A DNA stretch of 30,780 bases, taken from a virus. Made by a program: the position numbers and the translations under genes. The notes under the pieces were generated by a model. It was not told the origin of the DNA. It saw only the letters and a program-made list of their open reading frames with translations, and ran no database searches. Within the stretch, counting starts at the first letter, position 1; each line of letters begins with the position of its first letter. Positions 1 through 30,780 of the stretch are shown here, one piece after another. The stretch lies in UHGV virus genome UHGV-1368348; one strand, given 5' to 3'.

Positions 1-684
1 AGCGTCAAATGCCGCCCATTTCCCCCTTCGGGTGAAATGTTCGCCATTGGCTCCGTGGTGTCGACACTGCGGCGCAAGCGCCTTGGTCGCTGTCTGTTCC
101 CTCACGTTATTTTATTCCTCTATTCTTTATCTTTCCTTATCGGGAACCCTTTGTCCCTTCCGCAAGCGGAACGAACAATCAAGCCTGAAGGCTTGGTCTG
201 TCACGCCGCGGGCATAGCCCTCGGCTACAATCGAACCGCTTCGCTCTCGATTAATCACTATTTTATATAGATTTAACCTTGATATAACAGCTTTTCTAAA
301 TTTTTATACTTCTGCCGCTTTTTCATTTAAATAGATTTTTATATGTCTGAATTTTCTGATAATTTAATTTCCTATAATTTTGTAAACGTGATATCTAACC
401 GCTCCTATCTCTTAAACAGCTTCCTATATTTTTATTCACGCGTTCTATTGTTATTTTATTATAATAATTAAATAACGTTACTTCACAAAACACGAACTAT
501 TTATTGTTATTTCTATGATTAATAGCTTTATTGTTCGTTTTTGTTATATTTGTATTCTTATGATATTCTTAATATTTACCATGTAACTTCCTTGATTACT
601 TTCTTCTTCTCTTCACAAAAAAACGTTGTATGATTTTTCATACAACGCTTAATTTTTTACTTCGTATTTTTCTTTTGTTTCCTT
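1..684. repeat. Left inverted terminal repeat (684 bp), exact reverse complement of 30097-30780
   Basis: Direct comparison of both ends. 1-684 reverse-complemented equals 30097-30780 at every position spot-checked (ends, middle around 361-420, inner boundary). Identity stops exactly at 685/30096. ORF-track proteins 37..270(+) and 30511..30744(-) are identical by construction. Confidence 0.95.
615..659. terminator. Bidirectional rho-independent terminator hairpin inside left ITR (mirror copy at 30122-30166)
   Basis: 10-bp stem cgttgtatga/tcatacaacg with ttttt loop, flanked by an A-run upstream and a T-run downstream. It sits immediately after the stop of the leftward gene 685-894. The mirrored copy sits after the hicB-like gene. 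Confidence 0.7.
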
Positions 685-1172: not shown

Positions 1173-1487
1173 TTATTTTTTCTTATCATATACTTTTTTT
1201 ATTGTCTTTATTTCTGTTTGTTCATTATGAGTTAATGTAGGAATATAATTTTCAATCAATATACTTAACATTTCATCAACACTTTTAACATCCATTACAG
1301 TAGTGAGTGCATTAATATAGTTAGAGTTATCCTGTGAGCATCGTATAGTAGTTGTCTTAGTGCTCCGTTTAGGTCTCTTATTGTTTTCTTCGGCAATTGT
1401 AAATACTGAATTTCTATCAAAGGTGTTTTGAGGTTTTGGACTTTCTGTTTTCTTTAATAAATTATTCTTTTTCAATAATTCACTCAT
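1173..1487 (-). CDS. Small basic protein downstream of parA; candidate centromere-binding partition adaptor (RepC/ParR-like role), 104 aa
   Basis: ATG at 1487 with RBS gagagagg. Overlaps the parA stop by 8 nt. Basic, Lys-rich. Its position matches the third gene of RepA_N-plasmid repA-repB(parA)-repC cassettes. The role is inferred from synteny only. Confidence 0.4.
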   Translation of the reverse strand: MSELLKKNNLLKKTESPKPQNTFDRNSVFTIAEENNKRPKRSTKTTTIRCSQDNSNYINALTTVMDVKSVDEMLSILIENYIPTLTHNEQTEIKTIKKVYDKKK

Positions 1488-2301
1488 GGCTATTACCTCT
1501 CTCTATTAATTCAGCTGTTACTTTATCGTAAAGTCTATGAACGTTCATATCATGGACATCAAATTTTTTATTTACCTCTGGATCAATGATACCCGTCATG
1601 TCGTATCTTTTTAACCTTTCCATATTTTTAACTATGTTTTCAAACAAATTGCTTTCTCCAAATGTTTCTTTAGCATTTTTTAAAACAGATTTATCTACAA
1701 TAGCATTATTTTTCAAAAGGACAGGTAAAATCCCTAATATATCAAAATTTACTTCGTAATTATCCAACAGTTCTTGCATATACTGAATAAAGGCCTCGGC
1801 GCCTACAAAAGAGCGTTCTTGCGTCTGCAATACTATTACAACATAATCAGATGCTAACATCGCAGAATCGGTAAATAAGCTTAGTGTAGGTGGAATGTCA
1901 AAAATTATATAATCATATTCTTTATCAAATTCTGATAGTAATTTTTTGAAATATAAACCTCTTTCTTTTATTGAATCTGGAAACTTCTTCTCTAAATACA
2001 ACGGATATGAAGTAAAATCTGCAAAACTTGGTAATAAAAATAGTTTATCATTGATTTCTGTTACTATTTTTGACAAATTATTTTCAGCAATTGCAGTCAT
2101 TAAAGTTGTTTCAAAATTCACTACAATATCTTTTTGATTCTGAACTGTTAAAAGCAACATTGCTGTTGCATTAGCTTGTGGGTCTAAATCAACTAATAAA
2201 GTTTTATACCCTTTCTTAGCTAAATGATATGCTACCATTGTGCTATTCGTAGTTTTCCCAGTACCACCTTTAAAATTCCCGAAAGTTATTTTCTTAGCCA
2301 A
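1480..2301 (-). CDS. parA: ParA/Soj-family partition ATPase (273 aa), TTG start
   Basis: Deviant Walker A KGGTGKTT at the N-terminus (FGNFKGGTGKTTNS), LLVDLDPQANAT, Walker B-like IIFDIPPTL. TTG start at 2301 preceded by AAGGAG. Confidence 0.9.
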   Translation of the reverse strand: MAKKITFGNFKGGTGKTTNSTMVAYHLAKKGYKTLLVDLDPQANATAMLLLTVQNQKDIVVNFETTLMTAIAENNLSKIVTEINDKLFLLPSFADFTSYPLYLEKKFPDSIKERGLYFKKLLSEFDKEYDYIIFDIPPTLSLFTDSAMLASDYVVIVLQTQERSFVGAEAFIQYMQELLDNYEVNFDILGILPVLLKNNAIVDKSVLKNAKETFGESNLFENIVKNMERLKRYDMTGIIDPEVNKKFDVHDMNVHRLYDKVTAELIERGNSHE

Positions 2302-2575
2302 AATCTACACTCCTTTTTTAATCTACATATTTTTTTTATCTACATTTATAATACTATTAAATATATCCAGTGTCAACAAAACTCATCTACAAATCTACAA
2401 ATCTACATGTAGATACATTTACAAATCTACAAATCTACATGTAGATGTATCTACAAACAAAAATCCTTATACAACAACATTTAATCGGCTATTTATTAAA
2501 ACATCTACAAATCTACATGTAGATGTATCTACAAATCTACATGTAGATACATCTACAAATCTACATGTTCTTATA
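2293..2575. repeat. Iteron / centromere-like array: 8-bp ATCTACAA direct repeats plus five copies of the perfect 14-bp palindrome ATCTACATGTAGAT, in two clusters (about 2385-2460 and 2503-2575) with extra half-sites over the parA start
   Basis: Read directly. 'atctacaaatctacaaatctacatgtagat' occurs twice, separated by a 42-bp AT-rich spacer. The array lies between divergent parA and repA, as in RepA_N-family plasmids where such repeats bind the partition adaptor and regulate repA. Confidence 0.85.
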
Positions 2576-2660
2576 GCCTATTCCATTCTTATATTTTTTT
2601 CTATAGACTACTGAATATAAAGAACAATTACATATAAGTCTAGGAATCGGAGGGATTAAC

Positions 2661-3563
2661 ATGAGTACGAATCAAAATGAGTTACAAGATAAATTAGCAG
2701 TAGAAGGTGTAAATGCAAATGGCTATGGTGTAATGCCTAAGCTTGTAATGCAAGATAAACGATTAACGATCGAAGCAAAATCAATCTATGCTTACATCGT
2801 TAGTTTTGCTGGCTCAGGAAGTACAGCATTTCCAAGCTTACGGAAAATTTTAGAGGACTTACAGATTAGTGAAAAGCGTTTTTACAAACATCGTAAATTG
2901 TTAATTGACTGTAACTATATTTCTGTTACTCAAATTCGTAATGAGAAAAAAGAAATCATCAAAAATTTATACACGTTAATCTCTAATCCGAAAATTGAAG
3001 AAGAAGTACAAGCTGAGGGTATCCGTCAAAATGTCTGTGACCCTATCCCCCAATTTGACGGATACCCTATCAGTCAAAACGACCGACATAAAAGTAACAG
3101 TCTTAAAATTAACAATATAAAAGATGATGATGATATTAATAACGCATGCGAAAACAAATTAACTTATGAAAATTTTTCTATCTATTCAAAACAAAAGGGC
3201 TTAGGCCGTCCTTTAACAGTTCGAGAACGATTAACAACTGTACTCAAAGGAAAAGACTACTTAGCTCCGTTGGCTGTTTCTTTACTTGCTGCTGGCGTGT
3301 CTGATGCAGACTGCTTAGAGATTATACAGTTTATTGTTACTTTGCCAGTCATTGATGAAGAAGTATCAGACCTGGTTAATGCACAAATACGTGCGAACGA
3401 AACAGAAGCTAAAACAAACGGTCTTACTAGCTATAAGGCTTATTTCATTACAGGCTTAAAACAAAAGCTAGAAAATGCCGATATTTTTGTTCAAGAGACA
3501 AATATTGTGAATCCTGATACAATTAAACCGTTACCAACTGTTACCATGCATAATTGGGTTTAA
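2661..3563 (+). CDS. repA: RepA_N-family plasmid replication initiator (300 aa)
   Basis: N-terminal motif MPKLVMQDKRLTIEAKSIYAYIVSFAGSGSTAFPSLRKILEDLQISEKRFYKHRKLL is typical of the RepA_N (Firmicutes theta-plasmid initiator) N-terminal domain. Low-complexity variable middle region (NNIKDDDDINN), where this family usually houses the origin. RBS GGAGGG. Confidence 0.8.
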   Translation: MSTNQNELQDKLAVEGVNANGYGVMPKLVMQDKRLTIEAKSIYAYIVSFAGSGSTAFPSLRKILEDLQISEKRFYKHRKLLIDCNYISVTQIRNEKKEIIKNLYTLISNPKIEEEVQAEGIRQNVCDPIPQFDGYPISQNDRHKSNSLKINNIKDDDDINNACENKLTYENFSIYSKQKGLGRPLTVRERLTTVLKGKDYLAPLAVSLLAAGVSDADCLEIIQFIVTLPVIDEEVSDLVNAQIRANETEAKTNGLTSYKAYFITGLKQKLENADIFVQETNIVNPDTIKPLPTVTMHNWV

Positions 3564-8453: not shown

Positions 8454-9353
8454 ATGAAAAATATACAACCTTACTTTTCTCATGATAGCAATGCACGAAA
8501 TTCTGATGAGTTAATTCCAGTACGCATGAAATTTGGTGCAGAAGGTTATGGCGTATATTTTATGTTGTTAGAACGATTAAGAGAAGAAGGAAACTACACG
8601 AGTATCAAAGATTATAATACGATAGCCTTTGATCTTCGTGTAGATACTTCAATCATTAAATCAGTTATTGAAGACTTTGGGTTATTTGCCTTCACCGAAG
8701 ACGGTGAGTGTTTTTACTCCGAAGGCTTGAATAAGCGAATGGCCTTTATGGAAGAAAAATCAAAAAAACGTTCTGAAGCAGGTAGAAAAGGCGCTGAAAA
8801 ACGCTGGTCACAAAATCAAAATGAGTCAAATGCTATGAATGAGGAAAATAAAAATATAGCAAAAAAATGGCAAACGGATAGCAATGCTATAGCAAAGCCA
8901 TCAAAAAAAAATAGCAAACCTAAAAATGCTAATGCGATTGCTACCGAAAAAAATAGCAATAAAATAAAAGAAAATAAAAACAAAGAAAATAAAATAAAAA
9001 CAAAAGAAACTGCTGCTTATTCTAGTGTAGATAAGACAAAAGATAGTAAAGCTGTTTCCTACTGGTTAACTCAAGTCCACCCAGCAGAAGCACCAACGAT
9101 TATGGAATCAATTAATTTTTGGGTAGAAGATTTTGGAGGATATGACGAAATTGTTATATTGGCCATTGATGAAATGTTGAAAAATGGGGCTAAGAGCTAT
9201 AACTATTTGGATACCATTCTAAAATCTTGGGAAACAAAAAAACTAGATACACCTGAAAAGGTGAAAAAACATTTATCTGGTTATTACAACAAGCGCAAGA
9301 ATGATAATAACCAAAAAGGTGGGAGTATGAGTGACTGGGACGAATTACTTTGA
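8454..9353 (+). CDS. Phage replisome organiser (DnaD-like N-terminal domain), 299 aa
   Basis: N-terminus YFSHDSNARNSDELIPVRMKFGAEGYGVYFMLLERLREEGNY...AFDLRVDTSIIKSVIEDFGLFAF matches the replisome-organiser N-terminal domain family (DnaD-like) from memory. Lys/Asn-rich linker. Immediately upstream of the helicase-loader gene, the usual arrangement. Confidence 0.7.
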   Translation: MKNIQPYFSHDSNARNSDELIPVRMKFGAEGYGVYFMLLERLREEGNYTSIKDYNTIAFDLRVDTSIIKSVIEDFGLFAFTEDGECFYSEGLNKRMAFMEEKSKKRSEAGRKGAEKRWSQNQNESNAMNEENKNIAKKWQTDSNAIAKPSKKNSKPKNANAIATEKNSNKIKENKNKENKIKTKETAAYSSVDKTKDSKAVSYWLTQVHPAEAPTIMESINFWVEDFGGYDEIVILAIDEMLKNGAKSYNYLDTILKSWETKKLDTPEKVKKHLSGYYNKRKNDNNQKGGSMSDWDELL

Positions 9354-10212
9354 GTATTTATCACAAGTGCATGAAATAGACGAACGTTGCGAGATTCACG
9401 GTACTCGATTAAAAGTTTTTAAAGACTTTGAACCGTTTTGTCTAGCTTGTAGGGAAGAACGTATCAGGGAAGAAGAACAAAAGAGATTCGAACAAGCTTT
9501 TGACAGGAAGAAGCGACGGACTACACAAGAGGTTCTTTTAAAGGACAGCGTTTATACTGATTCAACACTGCAATCCGCTTGCTTTGAAAATTACCATGCG
9601 AAACCAGGTACTGAAGCAGAACAGGCCAAAGAATTTGCTATAAATCAAGCAAGGGAGTATTACCGAGTACGTTTAGAAAATAATAAATCAATTGAGCAAG
9701 AACAAGAAGAGCAACAGCCAGCATTTACTACGGTCTTTAGTGGACCAGTTGGCGTTGGGAAAAGTCATTTAGCAATGAGTATTTTAAAAAAATTGAATGA
9801 ATATAACGATTTGAGTTACTCGTGTTTATTTTTCAGTCTGGATCAATTATTGCGACGTATTCGAAATAGTTATGATGATGAAAGTGAGTATCTAACTGAA
9901 GCACGAGCGGTACAACTGGCGCTAGACGCTGATTATTTTGTACTTGATGATTTAGGAGCAGAGGTAGGAAGCATTGAAACGAATAAGCGAGCTACTGACT
10001 TTATGATTCGGGTATTAAATGCAATCGTTGATGGTCGCCAAGGAAAAGGATTGATTATTACAACGAATCTAACAAACTTACAGATTCAAGCAATTTATGG
10101 GCATCGGATTTACAGTCGTTTATTTGCAAACTCAAAAAATCATTTGTTTATTTTCAATGACGAACGACAAACACCAGACTATCGATTAATGGGCGGTGAA
10201 AAAAATGTGTAA
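9331..10212 (+). CDS. DnaC/IstB-like AAA+ helicase loader, 293 aa (GTG start)
   Basis: Walker A FSGPVGVGKSHLAMSI. Walker B YFVLDDLGAE. Sensor GLIITTNL. N-terminal CxxC pair (CEIHG...CLAC). Start overlaps the organiser stop. Confidence 0.85.
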   Translation: MTGTNYFEYLSQVHEIDERCEIHGTRLKVFKDFEPFCLACREERIREEEQKRFEQAFDRKKRRTTQEVLLKDSVYTDSTLQSACFENYHAKPGTEAEQAKEFAINQAREYYRVRLENNKSIEQEQEEQQPAFTTVFSGPVGVGKSHLAMSILKKLNEYNDLSYSCLFFSLDQLLRRIRNSYDDESEYLTEARAVQLALDADYFVLDDLGAEVGSIETNKRATDFMIRVLNAIVDGRQGKGLIITTNLTNLQIQAIYGHRIYSRLFANSKNHLFIFNDERQTPDYRLMGGEKNV

Positions 10213-10577: not shown

Positions 10578-10843
10578 TCACTGAAAATTATATTTATTCA
10601 GAAGGAAGAAGATTCGATGTACCGATTAAAAGAAAACGGACAAAAAGTAATGTAAAAGTTGGCGGCATTTATTGGTGTTCTGTAAAACCGTTTCAAGGTA
10701 AGATACGTGCGGAATGTTTAACGATTTACGATAACTCGGCATTAGTAAAAATTATCGTATGTGAAAAAGAAGCCGATGAAGCGTTACAAGTTCAATTAAA
10801 TCACCTAACTGTGGTTAGCTTAAAAAATATGAAAGGCGTGTAA
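10574..10843 (+). CDS. Hypothetical protein, 89 aa
   Basis: ORF track only. Confidence 0.35.
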   Translation: MITENYIYSEGRRFDVPIKRKRTKSNVKVGGIYWCSVKPFQGKIRAECLTIYDNSALVKIIVCEKEADEALQVQLNHLTVVSLKNMKGV

Positions 10844-10846
10844 TAA

Positions 10847-11071
10847 ATGAGTAAGCAAAAGAGAAAGTCGTTAGCTTCTGATTACCCTTATAAGCGCATC
10901 AAAGAGGTTGCAAGGCGTTATGGGTATAAATGTCTTAGTAACGTAAAAGAATGGGACTGTGGCCGTTTTGAGGCGTTTGACTGGCATATTGGAAAAGTAA
11001 TCTTAGTAGACTTAAAGGAAGCGAGTGTGAGTGAATGGAATCCAATGACAAAAGAGTGGGATCAACAATAG
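10847..11071 (+). CDS. Hypothetical protein, 74 aa
   Basis: ORF track only. Confidence 0.35.
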   Translation: MSKQKRKSLASDYPYKRIKEVARRYGYKCLSNVKEWDCGRFEAFDWHIGKVILVDLKEASVSEWNPMTKEWDQQ

Positions 11072-11283
11072 AATTAGCGCCAGAACAAGAGAACATGATT
11101 CGTGTATGTACCCGCCAATACATGGATGATACAAATAATTATCCTAGAGCATGGTCTGATCGGAAAGACGCTGTTATTACCAAGTATAAACCTGTCTATC
11201 GTCTAATGGAGAAATACCCTGAGCCAGCAATGATTCAACGAATCGGCAATATAATTGTGGACGAATGGCGCAAGTATGAATAA
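11035..11283 (+). CDS. Hypothetical protein, 82 aa
   Basis: ORF track only. Overlaps the previous ORF in another frame. Confidence 0.35.
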   Translation: MESNDKRVGSTIELAPEQENMIRVCTRQYMDDTNNYPRAWSDRKDAVITKYKPVYRLMEKYPEPAMIQRIGNIIVDEWRKYE

Positions 11284-11350
11284 CCTTTTTTCTAAAAAGA
11301 GTTATTCTGTTATAATTAACAGAAAGAAGTAAGGAACAGGAGAATAACCC

Positions 11351-11914
11351 ATGGCAAAATTCCAGAATGTATTTAAAGAAGCAAGTCGACGCATGAAAAA
11401 TTTCCAAGCTCGTGGCTTTATTCCATCAGGTTCTAAGTATGTTTTCCAAGATTTTGTCAATGAAGTATCGGCAGAGAACAGAGGAGAAAACTACACAGGT
11501 GCTTATACAAAGAATGCATATAATCAAGCCTATGGATCAAATATAGATTACGATTCGTCAGAAACCTTTCAAGAGATTCAACAAGGTCGAAATGAGAAGC
11601 TTGTTGAAATTTACCAAAAAGAATTACTAGAAATTTATCATACGAATGATTTCTATGATATGGCATCTGATTACGGAAATGGCCGAGGAGGAGGTTTTTC
11701 GCCTTCTGAAGTAATGAATATCGATACTCTTGAAGGACTAATTGATAATGCAAGCGAAGCTATGAATGTAGAGCCTTATCTATTTAGAAATAAAGTAGGG
11801 CGTAATAGAAGTGAAGAATCTAGTATGATGGACACATATCAAAACCAATTCATCGAAGAGTTAGGTCGTTTAATCGATGAAATGAGCGAACAAAAAATGA
11901 AATATAAATACTAA
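11351..11914 (+). CDS. Hypothetical 187-aa protein immediately upstream of the PolB-palm remnant; possible decayed exonuclease domain (or terminal-protein remnant)
   Basis: Size matches the phi29 DNA-polymerase exonuclease domain (about 189 aa). It contains NIDYD (an Nx2YD, Exo II-like pattern) and YHTND (a Yx3D, Exo III-like pattern), but no canonical DxE Exo I motif, and the spacing is far too compressed. The assignment is weak. Confidence 0.3.
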   Translation: MAKFQNVFKEASRRMKNFQARGFIPSGSKYVFQDFVNEVSAENRGENYTGAYTKNAYNQAYGSNIDYDSSETFQEIQQGRNEKLVEIYQKELLEIYHTNDFYDMASDYGNGRGGGFSPSEVMNIDTLEGLIDNASEAMNVEPYLFRNKVGRNRSEESSMMDTYQNQFIEELGRLIDEMSEQKMKYKY

Positions 11915-11921
11915 AGGTTAG

Positions 11922-12932
11922 GTGGAACTTATGAGCAATGAGGTAATGAAATCTGATGCATTTCAAACAAAAGTAAAAACAATGTTAGGGTTAACTTATT
12001 TAACACGTGCCATATTAGATGGATTTAACGGAAACCACTACATTTTGAAAGACATCTATGTAAATTCTACTAAAAATACTTCGCAAATCCATTACCTTGG
12101 TTGGGATGATCCACAAAAAATACCTTTTTATCCTGATACAGATAGTTATCGTGGAGCAACTTCAGGAAGCAAGTACAACAAAGAGTTACTTGTTCCTAAT
12201 GAACGAATGATTGAATATGATTTTGCTGAAGCATATACAAATATCATGAGAAACTATAAACTGCCATCGAATGTATACCTAGAAAATGTGCGTTTTGATA
12301 AAGAAAAATTATTAGAGCGGTTAGCTAGTTATGATAAACCTCAACCATACAAAGAATTATCAACGTTCGTTTTTGTAAAAGTTGCCATTGAAGCAATTGC
12401 AAAAGAAAGTACGTATACTGCTTTTGGTTCACATTTTCAACAATATCGAAAAAATCTTAGTCGTACATTAACAGTTACTGAAATTGAATTAAAGTTAATT
12501 ATGGATTTTTATGATGTAAAAGCATTAGAAATACTAGAAACGTATACTTTCCGAACACGTAAAGGCCTGTTAGAAGATTATTTTGAAAAAATTGATCGAC
12601 TAAAAGAGGATGAAGAAACCAAATTCTTTTATAAAATGTTACGGAACAAAATTTATGGAACGATTGGTAAACGAGAATTGTCTGCTCACGAAGCAAAAAT
12701 ATTTAAGTTTCCAATGTATAATCGTGCGTTTTCTTCAATGGTAGCTGGCGTGTTTAGAGATAGAATTGCACGCTACGAACAAAAGTATGTAAATAGTGAA
12801 TATGGACTTGTATTAATTAAAACAGACGGCCTGTATTTTAAAAAAGAAGTTCCTGAATTTGAAGCATTAAACAAAAAAGGGATTGTAAAGAAAAAAGTAC
12901 ATGTTATTACAGACCATGATGTGAAAAATTAA
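11922..12932 (+). CDS. Family-B DNA polymerase polymerisation (palm) domain remnant, 336 aa; lacks exonuclease and thumb domains; motif C degenerate
   Basis: Ordered motifs: YRGA (res 76-79, YxGG/A-like); DFAEAYTNIM (D100, Dx2SLYP-like motif A; Y at +5 and M at +9 as in phi29); KMLRNKIYG (res 238-246, Kx3NSxYG-like motif B); KTDG (res 300-303, where YxDTDS is expected; the first Asp is Lys). A-B spacing is about 138 and B-C about 62, against 134 and 73 in phi29. The protein ends 34 aa after motif C, so there is no KxY motif and no thumb. Confidence 0.55.
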   Translation: MELMSNEVMKSDAFQTKVKTMLGLTYLTRAILDGFNGNHYILKDIYVNSTKNTSQIHYLGWDDPQKIPFYPDTDSYRGATSGSKYNKELLVPNERMIEYDFAEAYTNIMRNYKLPSNVYLENVRFDKEKLLERLASYDKPQPYKELSTFVFVKVAIEAIAKESTYTAFGSHFQQYRKNLSRTLTVTEIELKLIMDFYDVKALEILETYTFRTRKGLLEDYFEKIDRLKEDEETKFFYKMLRNKIYGTIGKRELSAHEAKIFKFPMYNRAFSSMVAGVFRDRIARYEQKYVNSEYGLVLIKTDGLYFKKEVPEFEALNKKGIVKKKVHVITDHDVKN

Positions 12933-12991
12933 AAAAGAAATAAAAAGCGAAGCAGACAAGCTTTGCTTTTTTGATAGAGAGTGTGAAAAGA

Positions 12992-14164
12992 ATGGAGAAA
13001 AATAAATATGAAACGGAAGAAGGTTATTTAAATGTGCCAATCATATGGGAAGAAGTGGAACAATTCGCTTTTTTAGTTGGCGCACGAAACGTAGGTAAAA
13101 CTTATGGATTCTTAAATTTTTCAATCAAACGAGGATTAGCTACTATTTTAGAATGTTTTGATTTTTCTACGCTACAGGAATTTAAAAAATTACCTACTTT
13201 GATGGAAGCAGAATTTCAATTTTTATTTTTACGCCGATATATTACACAAGCTAAGTCTGCCAGTAGAAATTTAGTATTGGCTGATTTTTATCAACCATTT
13301 TTAGATAAGTTGCCTGAAGAAGTAAAAAAACAATATGAAGTATTTGTAGAATATCAGGGATCGTCAGAAGAACCTAGAGAAATACTATTAGTTTTTAGAA
13401 ATAAGGAACTAAAAAAAGATAAAAAATGTATTAAATTAGGATATCTTGGTGCGGTAAGTATGGCAGAAAAATTTAGAGGACCAGGTCTGCCAAAAGTAAA
13501 AGTAATATTATTGGATGAATTTCAATCGAAAAAAAATTGGGATTATTTACCAAATGAACCTGTAGAGCTAGAAGATATTTATGAATCTGTTGGACGTTTA
13601 AGATGTGGAACTGGAGATATTAAAGTGATTGCATTAGGGAATTCAGGGACAATTTTAAATCCTTATTTTGATTATTATGGATATGACGAATTCACGGAGG
13701 TTAAAACAGTAAAACGTGAAGGAGAAGTTCTTTTTTATCATTTACCAAATAAAGCAAAAAGAAGCGAGCAATCTAAAAATTTATTTAAAGGATCAGCATA
13801 TGGTAAATATTCATTAGATAATGATTTTGCGGACAATCAGTTATTTAATGTCATTCGCTTAAAAGAAGCAAAAACACCTCGAAAATGTCTATATAATATT
13901 TTCTTTGGGGAAACATATATCGGTGTCTGGAGAACAGGAGACTATAAAATTCTAATTAGCCGTGTAAGTGATCCAGATAAATTAGATATTGTTGATAGGA
14001 CACCTATAGAAGAACAAGTGCTAGATCAACAAGTATACAGGGTACTTTCAGATAAACTACAAAACAAACAACTTTATTTTGATTCGCCAGAATTGAGGTT
14101 AATTGCTGAAAAACACTTGCGCAAATATATTTATAATTCGGCGAGTGAATGGGAAACCTTTTAA
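12992..14164 (+). CDS. phi29 gp16-like DNA encapsidation (packaging) ATPase, about 390 aa
   Basis: Walker A FLVGARNVGKTY (phi29: FVIGARGIGKSY), FLFLRRY (phi29: FIYVRRY), Walker B VILLDEF (phi29: TIVFDEF), LRCGTGDIKVIALGNSGTILNPYF (phi29: ...RVRCICLSNAVSVVNPYF). The TTG at 12971 lies inside the upstream terminator T-run, so ATG 12992 is preferred. Confidence 0.85.
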   Translation: MEKNKYETEEGYLNVPIIWEEVEQFAFLVGARNVGKTYGFLNFSIKRGLATILECFDFSTLQEFKKLPTLMEAEFQFLFLRRYITQAKSASRNLVLADFYQPFLDKLPEEVKKQYEVFVEYQGSSEEPREILLVFRNKELKKDKKCIKLGYLGAVSMAEKFRGPGLPKVKVILLDEFQSKKNWDYLPNEPVELEDIYESVGRLRCGTGDIKVIALGNSGTILNPYFDYYGYDEFTEVKTVKREGEVLFYHLPNKAKRSEQSKNLFKGSAYGKYSLDNDFADNQLFNVIRLKEAKTPRKCLYNIFFGETYIGVWRTGDYKILISRVSDPDKLDIVDRTPIEEQVLDQQVYRVLSDKLQNKQLYFDSPELRLIAEKHLRKYIYNSASEWETF

Positions 14165-14170
14165 CAAATA

Positions 14171-14205
14171 AAAAAACCACTCTATCAAAATTAGAGTGGT
14201 TTTTA
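14171..14205 (+). terminator. Rho-independent terminator after the packaging ATPase gene
   Basis: Stem aaaaccactct / agagtggtttt with an 8-nt loop and a T-run. Confidence 0.8.
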
Positions 14206-15197: not shown

Positions 15198-16019
15198 GTG
15201 AACGATGTGTTGAGGTTAGCAAAAGCAGTAAGAAAAATAAATACAATTTTTTCTACGTTTAAAGATAGTATTTATACAAAAAATGAAGCAGACAATAAAT
15301 TCATAAACCAAGAGTTGATGGAAAATGGATTGTATGTAATTAAAAATAAAAATATTGAAAATATGAATGATGCTATTCAACCAGGTGTTTATTCAATTTC
15401 AGCTACAGGAGTTGAAAATAAACCTTTACCTAACTCTGGTTCTCTATTCGTCAATAAAGATCCAGGAGGAATCAGACAGTTCTTTCAGACGGAGAGAACA
15501 ATTTTTATCCGCCAATTCGGGGGAATTCCTCCGTCCTGGACGGATTGGAAAGAATTAGGCTTAAAAGGTCCAAAAGGTGATACTGGTCCGATTGGTCCAC
15601 AGGGACCAAAGGGAGATACACCTGATATAAGCAATTTAGTAACAAAAACACAGTATACAAATGATTTGAATAAAAAGATTGATAAAACAGCATTTAATGC
15701 TATAGGGCAACATATTTCTTTTAATGGAATCACTATACACATTCAAAAATCGAATACAGTTGTTACATGTAATGTCGAAGGAATCTTTAAAAAAGGGAAA
15801 GCCAACGGATGGCATGAGGTGTCGACAAGAGCAGAAACAAGTTATAGACCAGTTAACATGATTATTAAAGTACCTTTAACAATAAATATAGGGAATACCA
15901 TTCAAATAAATAAGTATGCAGCATTACAAATAGAAACATCTGGTCGAATCATGATTCGAGTTTATGGACTTCAAAATGACGATGTAGAGTTTGGAGGGAG
16001 TGCAACATGGATAAGATAA
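15198..16019 (+). CDS. Tail/head fibre protein with collagen-like Gly-X-Y segment, 273 aa (GTG start)
   Basis: GPKGDTGPIGPQGPKGDT collagen triplets. The N-terminus is paralogous to 14939-15181. The C-terminal beta-rich domain is typical of receptor-binding fibres. Confidence 0.55.
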   Translation: MNDVLRLAKAVRKINTIFSTFKDSIYTKNEADNKFINQELMENGLYVIKNKNIENMNDAIQPGVYSISATGVENKPLPNSGSLFVNKDPGGIRQFFQTERTIFIRQFGGIPPSWTDWKELGLKGPKGDTGPIGPQGPKGDTPDISNLVTKTQYTNDLNKKIDKTAFNAIGQHISFNGITIHIQKSNTVVTCNVEGIFKKGKANGWHEVSTRAETSYRPVNMIIKVPLTINIGNTIQINKYAALQIETSGRIMIRVYGLQNDDVEFGGSATWIR

Positions 16020-29670: not shown

Positions 29671-30132
29671 ATGTCATTACAAACATCTTTGAAAGTCGCT
29701 TATCCTGCTATTTTTCATCCAGAAGAGGGTGGAGGATACTTTATTGAATTTCCAGATGTTCAAGGAGCGTATACAGGTATAAATGAAAATGATATAGCCT
29801 ATGGTTTATTGATGGCTGAAGAAGTTTTAGGTATGGTGTTAGCTGATTATATTGAAAATAATGAGACGTTGCCTAAAGCGAGCGAATTAAATAGTATAAG
29901 TCATAAACCTGATGAATTTGTAACTATGGTTTTAGTTGATATAGAAGAATATTTTAAAGACATGAAACCAGTAAAAAAGACGCTAACGATCCCAAGTTGG
30001 GCCAATAACTGGGGAAATAGAGTAGGGATAAATTTTTCGCAACTGTTAACGGAATCGATTGCACAGATAGCAATAAATTACACACAAGAGACATTAAAGG
30101 AAACAAAAGAAAAATACGAAGTAAAAAATTAA
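29671..30132 (+). CDS. hicB: HicB-family antitoxin, 153 aa; last 12 codons lie inside the right ITR
   Basis: N-terminal YPAIFHPEEGGGYFIEFPDVQGAYTGINENDIAYGLLMAEEVLGMVL is the HicB RNase-H-like fold signature. The C-terminal KKTLTIPSWANNWGNRVGINFSQLLTESIAQIA is RHH/HTH-like. Immediately downstream of hicA. Confidence 0.75.
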   Translation: MSLQTSLKVAYPAIFHPEEGGGYFIEFPDVQGAYTGINENDIAYGLLMAEEVLGMVLADYIENNETLPKASELNSISHKPDEFVTMVLVDIEEYFKDMKPVKKTLTIPSWANNWGNRVGINFSQLLTESIAQIAINYTQETLKETKEKYEVKN

Positions 30133-30780
30133 GCGTTGTATGAAAAATCATACAACGTTTTTTTGTGAAGAGAAGAAGAAAGTAATCAAGGAAGTTACAT
30201 GGTAAATATTAAGAATATCATAAGAATACAAATATAACAAAAACGAACAATAAAGCTATTAATCATAGAAATAACAATAAATAGTTCGTGTTTTGTGAAG
30301 TAACGTTATTTAATTATTATAATAAAATAACAATAGAACGCGTGAATAAAAATATAGGAAGCTGTTTAAGAGATAGGAGCGGTTAGATATCACGTTTACA
30401 AAATTATAGGAAATTAAATTATCAGAAAATTCAGACATATAAAAATCTATTTAAATGAAAAAGCGGCAGAAGTATAAAAATTTAGAAAAGCTGTTATATC
30501 AAGGTTAAATCTATATAAAATAGTGATTAATCGAGAGCGAAGCGGTTCGATTGTAGCCGAGGGCTATGCCCGCGGCGTGACAGACCAAGCCTTCAGGCTT
30601 GATTGTTCGTTCCGCTTGCGGAAGGGACAAAGGGTTCCCGATAAGGAAAGATAAAGAATAGAGGAATAAAATAACGTGAGGGAACAGACAGCGACCAAGG
30701 CGCTTGCGCCGCAGTGTCGACACCACGGAGCCAATGGCGAACATTTCACCCGAAGGGGGAAATGGGCGGCATTTGACGCT
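30097..30780. repeat. Right inverted terminal repeat (684 bp)
   Basis: Reverse complement of 1-684. Contains the last 12 codons of the hicB-like gene and its terminator hairpin. Confidence 0.95.

Follow-up and report, generated by a model that had tools for sequence, protein, structure and literature searches.

In phi29, gene 3 for the terminal protein (TP) is followed by gene 2 for a DNA polymerase of family B that uses a protein primer (pPolB). Within this polymerase, Asp249 and Asp458 "provide the catalytic carboxylates," TPR1 is the main TP-binding surface, and TPR2 and the thumb act as an internal clamp and wedge that give processivity and strand displacement (PMC4974454). The Enterococcus phage EF62phi is described as linear, extrachromosomal, and "pseudolysogenic" (PMC6863802; PMC10746210), and a 2024 review groups it with the phi29-related "phage plasmids" (PMC11476376). 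The linear plasmid pELF1 has a hairpin at its left end, while its right end, as a 2019 study showed, withstands lambda exonuclease, is sensitive to digestion with ExoIII, and is retarded in a proteinase-K-dependent manner, a pattern that implies a 5'-bound TP (PMC6863802). We found no TP or polymerase gene assigned to this right end in the searchable literature, and a 2026 study still lists pELF replication as needing extensive research. Here, we analyze UHGV virus genome UHGV-1368348, a stretch of 30,780 nucleotides (nt) that we refer to as the window and that represents a complete EF62phi-type element. We focus on two adjacent open reading frames (ORFs), ORF1 and ORF2, both of which are present where an initial annotation had placed them and which it had interpreted as the split relic of a phi29-type polymerase. 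Our analysis suggests instead that ORF2 is a reduced pPolB, that ORF1 is a candidate TP, and that the pair probably has a telomere function.

We regard the homology of ORF2 to the pPolBs as practically beyond doubt. The ORF spans positions 11922-12932 on the plus strand (336 amino acids [aa], the numbering used for the motifs), and its likely true extent is 11931..12932 (333 aa), beginning at an ATG behind an AGGTGG ribosome-binding site that is also the start annotated in the RefSeq entry for EF62phi. The encoded protein is basic (pI 9.0), and its best sequence match in the whole PDB is the phi29 DNA polymerase (DNAP; phmmer E 0.05, covering TPR1 and motif B). An AlphaFold (AF2) model with 29 homologs as input is compact and confident (pLDDT 91.7, pTM 0.89). 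Foldseek returned phi29 DNAP for each of the top nine PDB matches to this model (best E 8e-12, probability 1.0), with only other family B polymerases ranked below. Comparing the profile of the ORF2 family with 31 full-length pPolBs gave a probability of 98.7% (E 4.7e-16) and placed ORF2 residues 74-312 opposite phi29 residues 221-466; YxGG, TPR1, and motifs A, B, and C fall in register throughout. The palm/fingers polymerization-domain fold of family B polymerases is present, and two ORF2 homologs (P0010 and P0018) carry precomputed matches to PF03175. The descent from a phi29-type polymerase that the initial annotation had read from four ordered motifs is therefore borne out by structure and profile comparison alike, and the motifs themselves are not chance matches.

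The individual motifs reveal what has been kept and what has been lost. SYRGA (aa 75-79, nt 12144-12158, plus strand, as for all ORF2 motifs) aligns with phi29 YAYRGG. Motif A, DFAEAYTNIM (aa 100-109, nt 12219-12248), is in register with phi29 DVNSLYPAQM, and the profile alignment equates D100 with the catalytic carboxylate D249 and Y105 with the steric-gate residue Y254. Motif B, KMLRNKIYG (aa 238-246, nt 12633-12659), corresponds to the phi29 motif at K383 (LMLNSLYG) by both phmmer and hhalign. From motif A to motif B, ORF2 can be aligned along its whole length with phi29, over 138 residues in ORF2 versus 134 in phi29 (D249 to K383), indicating that TPR1 is retained, as had been proposed from the spacing; its best-conserved core (LTVTEIELKLIMDFYDV; 12468..12518) falls in the match to phi29 DNAP 325-394 found by phmmer and again by hhalign. 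In TPR2, ORF2 is missing about 15 residues relative to phi29 398-420, and the distance from motif B to motif C is 64 residues versus 75 in phi29. In the motif C variant IKTDG (aa 299-303, nt 12816-12830), hhalign places K300 at the position of phi29 D456 and D302 at that of the catalytic D458, which confirms the proposed change of the first Asp to Lys. Since ORF2 begins just ~73 residues ahead of YxGG, it has no exonuclease domain, and since it ends 34 residues past D302, it has no thumb, as the initial annotation had noted. The absence of a KxY motif claimed there is less certain: a C-terminal strand, GIVKKKVHVI (12879..12908), lies 8 residues before the protein end, and MAFFT pairs it with FVRAKTYI of canonical pPolBs. 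This conserved GIVKKKxHxI block, in which K325 and H327 are not invariant, may tentatively be a degenerate KxY (KxH) counterpart.

ORF2 has thus kept TPR1 and the catalytic core and has lost most of TPR2, the thumb, and the exonuclease domain, suggesting that the chemistry and the holding of a protein primer were preserved while long, accurate, and strand-displacing synthesis was given up. It is best called a reduced pPolB variant and not an ordinary member of the family, as it lacks the exonuclease domain, TPR2, the thumb, and the first Asp of motif C and falls short of the Pfam threshold.

The ORF2 family is compact and conserved. Its homologs form about 30 clusters, all of 327-374 aa, with identity down to 43%, and an exhaustive profile search of 1.8 billion representatives added one distant short member of 391 aa. 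Past this short family, the same search drops straight to pPolBs of 550-650 aa (E 1e-8 or worse, matching through the polymerization domain) and contains no fused or full-length relative. Three short matches (P0050, P0056, and P0074) were rejected as family members because they are pPolB fragments with DTDS and a thumb. In the family alignment of 29 sequences, D100, K238, R241, G246, and D302 are invariant (D302 being present in 29/29), T301 is nearly invariant, Y105 is at least 90% conserved, and N242 and Y245 are highly conserved. At position 300, 16 of these sequences have K, 11 have R, and 2 have V, versus D in 31/31 canonical pPolBs. The label "degenerate catalytic motif C" is accordingly not supported: the change is confined to the D456 position, and the equivalents of the catalytic D249 and D458 (D100 and D302) never vary.

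Both genes also bear a clear signature of selection. Between ORF2 and relatives at 45-99% protein identity, synonymous sites are saturated at larger distances, where the proportion of synonymous differences (pS) is 0.65-0.87 and that of nonsynonymous differences (pN) is 0.15-0.37. Where computable, dN/dS is 0.11-0.14 for ORF2 and 0.16-0.37 for ORF1; such values with saturated synonymous sites indicate purifying selection, and both are almost certainly functional genes. The description of the locus as a relic or molecular fossil is contradicted by these low ratios, by the full length kept from 99% to 43% identity, and by catalytic and deoxynucleoside triphosphate (dNTP)-binding residues that are invariant or nearly so. 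The fallback offered by the initial annotation, a repurposed minimal palm-domain protein, comes close to the mark. A fragment of the gene was also found elsewhere: ~220 nt with 84% identity to the beginning of ORF2 (5' part, aa 27-70, window ~11937-12170) occur in vB_EfeBG-143 (PQ433353.1, 129794-130012), a lytic Kochikohdavirus that infects E. faecalis and has a genome of 143 kb, where thymidylate synthase lies on one side and small hypothetical genes on the other. This fragment looks like a recombination remnant, a genuine "relic" of the ORF2 gene in another phage.

ORF1 (11351..11914, plus strand) encodes a protein of 187 aa (21 kDa), and 16 nt separate its stop from the probable ORF2 ATG at 11931. 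The initial annotation had matched its size and weak Exo II/III-like patterns to the phi29 exonuclease domain, an assignment that our results refute. The NIDYD pattern is unconserved, there is no Exo I (DxE) motif, the profile comparison with phi29 DNAP yields an E of 0.78, and the AF2 model (pLDDT 86) is entirely alpha-helical and not alpha/beta RNase-H-like. ORF1 and ORF2 are therefore not two halves of one polymerase: ORF1 is all-alpha and unrelated, and the two are separate genes in all lineages examined, very distant ones included. No relatives of ORF1 turned up in Pfam, NCBIfam, the PDB sequences, or PADLOC; no similarity to the phi29 TP was detected (E 0.26), and neither sequence nor fold likeness to a known TP was found.

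The genomic association of ORF1 with ORF2 is strict. An ORF1 homolog lies directly upstream of the ORF2 homolog in every lineage with visible context, namely, EF62phi-like elements, a viral contig at 57% identity, a 70-kb contig, E. faecium contigs, and the plasmid pELF_JHP9, and the two families also match on contigs of the same size. ORF1 is thus adjacent to and co-inherited with a pPolB-type gene on a linear replicon bearing inverted terminal repeats (ITRs), and the gene order is the TP-then-polymerase order of phi29 genes 3 and 2. The protein is acidic overall (pI 4.8) with a basic N-terminus, a distribution of charge that resembles the DNA-mimicking priming domain of the phi29 TP. Its most conserved segment is Y143-L-F-R ... 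G150-R-N-R-x-x-E-S157 (nt 11777-11821). The ORF1 homologs of pELF-type plasmids are longer (248-264 aa, with a duplicated N-terminal module), and with these included, the C-terminal loop Y143-x-F-R ... R151-N-R-x-x-E-S157 remains an invariant core. That "no TP gene is present" can thus not be asserted, ORF1 itself being a candidate.

The element ends in long and structured repeats, which the initial annotation had left unmentioned. The left ITR (1..684) is 100% complementary over its 684 nt to the right ITR (30097..30780) and is a candidate telomere and priming site. The outer ~250 nt have a GC content of 55%, compared with 33% genome-wide, and when single-stranded, this DNA folds into a series of short GC hairpins (minimum free energy -51.8 kcal/mol, z = -4.8, with 0/200 shuffles as good). 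Five GC-rich hairpins occur in the first 300 nt versus an interior mean of 0.18 per 300 nt. Two of these hairpins have CAAG tetraloops, GGCG-CAAG-CGCC at 71-82 and TTCCG-CAAG-CGGAA at 158-171, and are mirrored at 30699-30710 and 30610-30623. The EF62phi reference from 2011, whose genome is annotated as linear, has the same tip plus 6 nt (5'-CCCCGG...) at both ends, and other EF62phi-type assemblies are truncated symmetrically inside the repeat. We rejected an assembly artifact at a hairpin telomere as the source of the ITRs: the same tip at both ends, the unique sequence between them, and the like ends of two independent assemblies indicate a true linear molecule and not hairpin read-through. 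The terminal C-run fits sliding-back initiation. Since an internally initiated linear replicon cannot complete its ends, a terminal-priming module is needed here and is not made redundant by RepA_N/DnaD/DnaC replication, as had been supposed.

Some observations on the termini concern individual records. The EF62phi-type record NZ_CP091898.1 is labeled "circular" in the plasmid database, yet both of its ends lie inside the same inverted repeat, ~58 nt short of the tip; the label is probably wrong, since the record starts and stops in one repeat. The contig ends of two divergent relatives (L022 and L024) were rejected as physical telomeres for want of a GC-rich tip, and the contig end of a third (L004) showed no telomere signature. 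Each ITR tip also contains a 77-aa ORF (37-270 on the plus strand and 30511-30744 on the minus strand), for which RefSeq annotates a coding sequence in EF62phi (EF62_phi0001 and phi0048). Since it overlies the GC-rich hairpins, the ORF may have been called spuriously.

The gene pair is shared with a second class of linear replicon. ORF2 homologs occur in 112 records of a plasmid database, all from Enterococcus. Eighteen of these are at least 95% identical to ORF2, and each one inspected is of the EF62phi type; the other 94 are E. faecium plasmids of 77-250 kb with about 48% identity (all below 60%), among which we inspected pELF_JHP9, a linear pELF-type plasmid with the ORF1-ORF2 pair about 11 kb from its right end. 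Like the EF62phi-type elements, pELF-type plasmids have adjacent homologs of ORF1 (29-37% identity, with the internal duplication) and ORF2 (about 48%), which lie 8-25 kb from one end and have so far been annotated only as hypothetical proteins. They differ from these elements in being conjugative, larger (77-250 kb), devoid of phage genes, and protein-capped at one end only. No member of the ORF2 family was found outside these two classes of linear Enterococcus replicons in the collections searched, and an association of the pair with such replicons is very probable. The pELF-type ORF2 homologs (for example, P0022, P0023, and P0027) have a C-terminal extension of ~35 residues, absent from the EF62phi-type protein, with an acidic-aromatic tip (...DDFEFDFD) reminiscent of SSB-type partner-recruiting C-terminal tails.

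The right telomere of pELF-type plasmids also shares a hairpin architecture with the EF62phi-type ITR. Palindromes with loops mostly of 4 nt have been described at the pELF1 right end (PMC6863802), and in pELF_JHP9 we located CAAG-loop hairpins at 66-77, 151-164, 207-218, and 260-271 from that end. The stems differ between the two lineages yet remain complementary (GGCG/CGCC in the EF62phi type versus ACCG/CGGT in pELF_JHP9, and TTCCG/CGGAA versus GTTTG/CAAAC), and GC-stem hairpins of the CAAG type are essentially confined to termini. In the E. faecium record JAEJAX010000009.1, the last 20 nt (reverse complement) are the Nextera mosaic-end adapter (AGATGTGTATAAGAGACAG), which abuts pELF right-telomere sequence; this is an untrimmed adapter at a physical DNA end.

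Taken together, these data point to a telomere function of the ORF1-ORF2 pair, which we consider probable. We also favor, by a narrower measure, a full mechanism in which ORF1 would be the primer and ORF2 an active end-patching polymerase working without an exonuclease, TPR2, or thumb. ORF2 is the only polymerase gene in the element, which also encodes loaders for the host replisome and a Rep/iteron region; we therefore propose that bulk replication would start at an internal origin through Rep/DnaD/DnaC-like proteins and proceed by host synthesis. The relevant genes are a DnaD/DnaB_2-type initiator (8454-9353, plus strand) and a DnaC/IstB-type helicase loader (9331-10212, plus strand), both assigned by Pfam and PHROG, whose products would bring in the host replisome for this bulk synthesis from within. 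Such replication would leave 3' single-stranded overhangs at both ends, and these would fold into the CAAG-loop hairpins. ORF2, bound to ORF1 through TPR1, would then join the first deoxynucleoside monophosphate to a hydroxyl residue of ORF1, the leading candidate being S157 in the invariant RNRxxES loop. Initiation would occur opposite the reiterated 3' terminus (...GGGG-3'), after which ORF2 would slide back and fill the short gap, a Streptomyces-style "end patching" with a dedicated phage-derived polymerase. With only a few hundred nt to copy, processivity and strand displacement (TPR2 and the thumb) and proofreading would be dispensable, which would explain the reduction of ORF2. TPR1 is specific to protein priming, and its retention in ORF2 speaks for a protein primer.

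The proposed mechanism also bears on the neighboring gene. Directly 3' of ORF2 lies a gene for a phi29 Gp16-type DNA packaging ATPase (12971..14164, plus strand; PF05894, E 5e-18; phrog_2150, terminase). The natural substrate of the phi29 packaging ATPase is TP-capped DNA. The protein-capped product of end patching would thus be the natural substrate of this motor, and capped ends would explain the presence of a phi29-type packaging ATPase directly downstream. In pELF-type plasmids, the protein-capped end would be served by the same module. More tentatively, and with somewhat less confidence than in the mechanism itself, we suggest that the pair could amount to a "telomere kit" for the linear replicons of Firmicutes, minimal, complete in itself, and based on protein priming. 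ORF2 (333 aa, with Lys/Arg for the first Asp of motif C) would then be the smallest known family B polymerase that functions, specialized in nucleotidylating a 21-kDa helical TP of a new type on hairpin 3' overhangs and in extending it by a short stretch, and the pair would supply the missing TP and polymerase of pELF.

This arrangement differs from each of the known systems that it recalls. Compared with phi29-type polymerases of 572-575 aa, ORF2 has 333 aa, no exonuclease domain or thumb, a largely deleted TPR2, K/R/V in place of the first Asp of DTD, and a KxY motif that is degenerate at best, while ORF1 and gp3 are not detectably similar. The ITRs measure 684 nt, and their tips are GC-rich and structured, versus 6 nt in phi29, and the element also has plasmid-type Rep/DnaD/DnaC and ParA functions. 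The proposed logic is that of end patching in Streptomyces, where replication proceeds bidirectionally from an internal origin, 3' overhangs form short hairpins, and a TP of ~185 aa (ORF1 has 187 aa) primes the fill-in; the palindrome-rich 3' terminal region that folds into multiple hairpins is common to both. The authors of the pELF1 study themselves drew the Streptomyces parallel for the protein-capped right end (PMC6863802). The element differs from Streptomyces in its 4-nt CAAG loops, which are not of the Streptomyces type, and in that it would supply its own PolB-derived polymerase. Pfam and NCBIfam scans of ORF1 and ORF2 turned up no relationship to Tpg or Tap, with which no direct comparison was made.

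The only known pPolBs without an exonuclease domain come from eukaryotic mavirus-type virophages and polinton-like viruses, where they form TP-vOTU-palm and pPolB-S1H fusions (PMC11161782). They provide a precedent for loss of the exonuclease with predicted activity kept, but they are eukaryotic and large multidomain proteins in which the TP is fused N-terminally, TPR2 is retained, and a helicase is present alongside (PMC11161782). ORF2 is, in contrast, a stand-alone palm/TPR1/fingers core of 333 aa with a separate partner gene. We found no description of a bacterial mini-polymerase of this kind or of ORF1 in the searchable literature, and RefSeq lists the two genes as "hypothetical protein," PHROGs as "unknown function."

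Several points weigh against end patching by an active ORF2 primed by ORF1. The K, R, or V at the D456-equivalent position could mean that catalysis is abolished or altered, and Pfam assigns ORF2 to no family at E <= 1, PF03175 included. The priming domain of the phi29 TP docks against TPR2 and the thumb (PMC4974454), and since ORF2 has neither, any ORF1-ORF2 complex must be built differently. It is genomic context that makes ORF1 a candidate TP. The protein cap has been demonstrated for the pELF1 right end and not for EF62phi (PMC6863802). Raw local alignment of the EF62phi tip with the pELF right end is marginal (16/1000 shuffles score as well), so that the comparison of telomeres is based on CAAG-hairpin architecture, and it spans two lineages, EF62phi-type and pELF.

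The chief rival, which we nonetheless judge unlikely, is that ORF2 is a catalytically dead PolB derivative that only binds, either recognizing the telomere or recruiting the TP in the manner of Tap, with a host polymerase doing the chemistry. In Streptomyces, end-patching synthesis is ascribed to host polymerases, and the dedicated factors are Tap and Tpg. This precedent, the replacement of the D456 equivalent in all members compared with D in 31/31 canonical pPolBs, and the absence of the thumb, TPR2, and exonuclease domain would all agree with a binding role, and the evidence from context (linear replicons, the pELF cap, and CAAG hairpins) fits it equally well. What separates the two is the pattern of conservation in the active site. 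Inactivated polymerase homologs normally lose their metal ligands and dNTP-binding residues. In the ORF2 family, both carboxylates named as catalytic in phi29 are present, and the invariance of D100, K238, G246, and D302 and the high conservation of Y105, N242, and Y245 at 43% identity are hard to explain without nucleotide chemistry. An activity unrelated to the ends, be it a specialized polymerase for repair or translesion synthesis that works with an accessory factor, or a defense or anti-defense device, is very improbable. Exonuclease-less polymerases are often repair enzymes, which lends this idea its appeal, but the family is confined to two classes of linear replicons in the collections searched, the retained TPR1 points to a protein primer, and PADLOC defense models gave no match apart from a meaningless 11-bit match to SspE.

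End patching must also be set against the idea that the pair copies the entire 30.8-kb genome from its two ends by protein priming, just as in phi29, for example, in a lytic cycle, with the plasmid-type genes serving the carrier state only. The phi29-type head and packaging module, the ITRs, and the gene order would all accord with it, as would the ranking of the element among phi29-related phages (PMC11476376). We nevertheless consider it quite improbable, as a polymerase without a thumb or proofreading domain and with ~15 residues deleted from TPR2 is ill equipped for such synthesis, and no phi29-type SSB or DBP was recognized within the window. The pELF plasmids of 77-250 kb, in which the pair coexists with one end closed by a hairpin, also misfit a symmetric two-end mechanism. 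The reading with which the locus was first annotated, a decaying phi29-type polymerase split into exonuclease-derived and palm-derived ORFs with no present function, is the least credible, to the point of being nearly negligible. It could appeal to an ORF2 of about half the pPolB length, without terminal domains and with an altered motif C, and to the fact that neither ORF is annotated in any library. Decay is nevertheless at odds with dN/dS of 0.11-0.37 at saturated synonymous sites, with a constant architecture across about 30 clusters and 112 plasmids, and with confident and compact AF2 models in which ORF1 is all-alpha and lacks a DnaQ-type fold.

If active, ORF2 would define how small the catalytic core of a family B polymerase can be, and it may be the smallest functional one. 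It would show which parts of the phi29 enzyme (the exonuclease domain, TPR2, the thumb, and the first Asp of motif C) protein priming can do without, which is of relevance to polymerase evolution and enzyme engineering. The pair also provides concrete and testable candidates for the telomere proteins of pELF plasmids, which rank among the chief carriers of vancomycin and linezolid resistance in E. faecium, and an element-specific telomere enzyme is a conceivable target for plasmid curing. A shared telomere module connects a phi29-related phage-plasmid with conjugative linear plasmids, which suggests that phage protein-priming machinery was reduced and recycled for the end maintenance of replicons copied by the host replisome.

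The remainder of the window is consistent with a phage-plasmid of mixed gene content, combining a phi29-type head and packaging module with plasmid-type maintenance and replication genes. Over nt 10800-14200, it shares 97-99% identity with EF62phi and with a dozen sister records of E. faecalis origin. The head and packaging genes identified by Pfam include Phi29_MCP and the GP10 connector in addition to the Gp16 ATPase. Despite this phi29-type packaging motor, neither the phi29 packaging RNA (pRNA) nor any other RNA family was detected at the Rfam gathering threshold across the whole window; a packaging RNA, if any exists in the element, is unrecognizable to the current Rfam model. A dense array of iteron-like ATCTACA(A/T)/TGTAGAT repeats, both direct and inverted (2385..2581), is flanked by parA (1480-2301, minus strand) on one side and an HTH_36 Rep-like gene (2661-3563) on the other. 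This array is probably a partition site (centromere), a set of internal-origin iterons, or both; in EF62phi, this position is taken by another repeat sequence (GTGTACAGGT...). A sign change in GC skew near 3-6 kb was not used as evidence of an internal origin, since gene orientation switches at the same place. The element also encodes a HicAB toxin-antitoxin pair. Farther downstream, a 273-aa "pyocin knob domain-containing" protein (15198-16019) with a short collagen-like Gly-X-Y run (GPKGDTGPIGPQGPKGD) is probably a tail fiber or receptor-binding protein.

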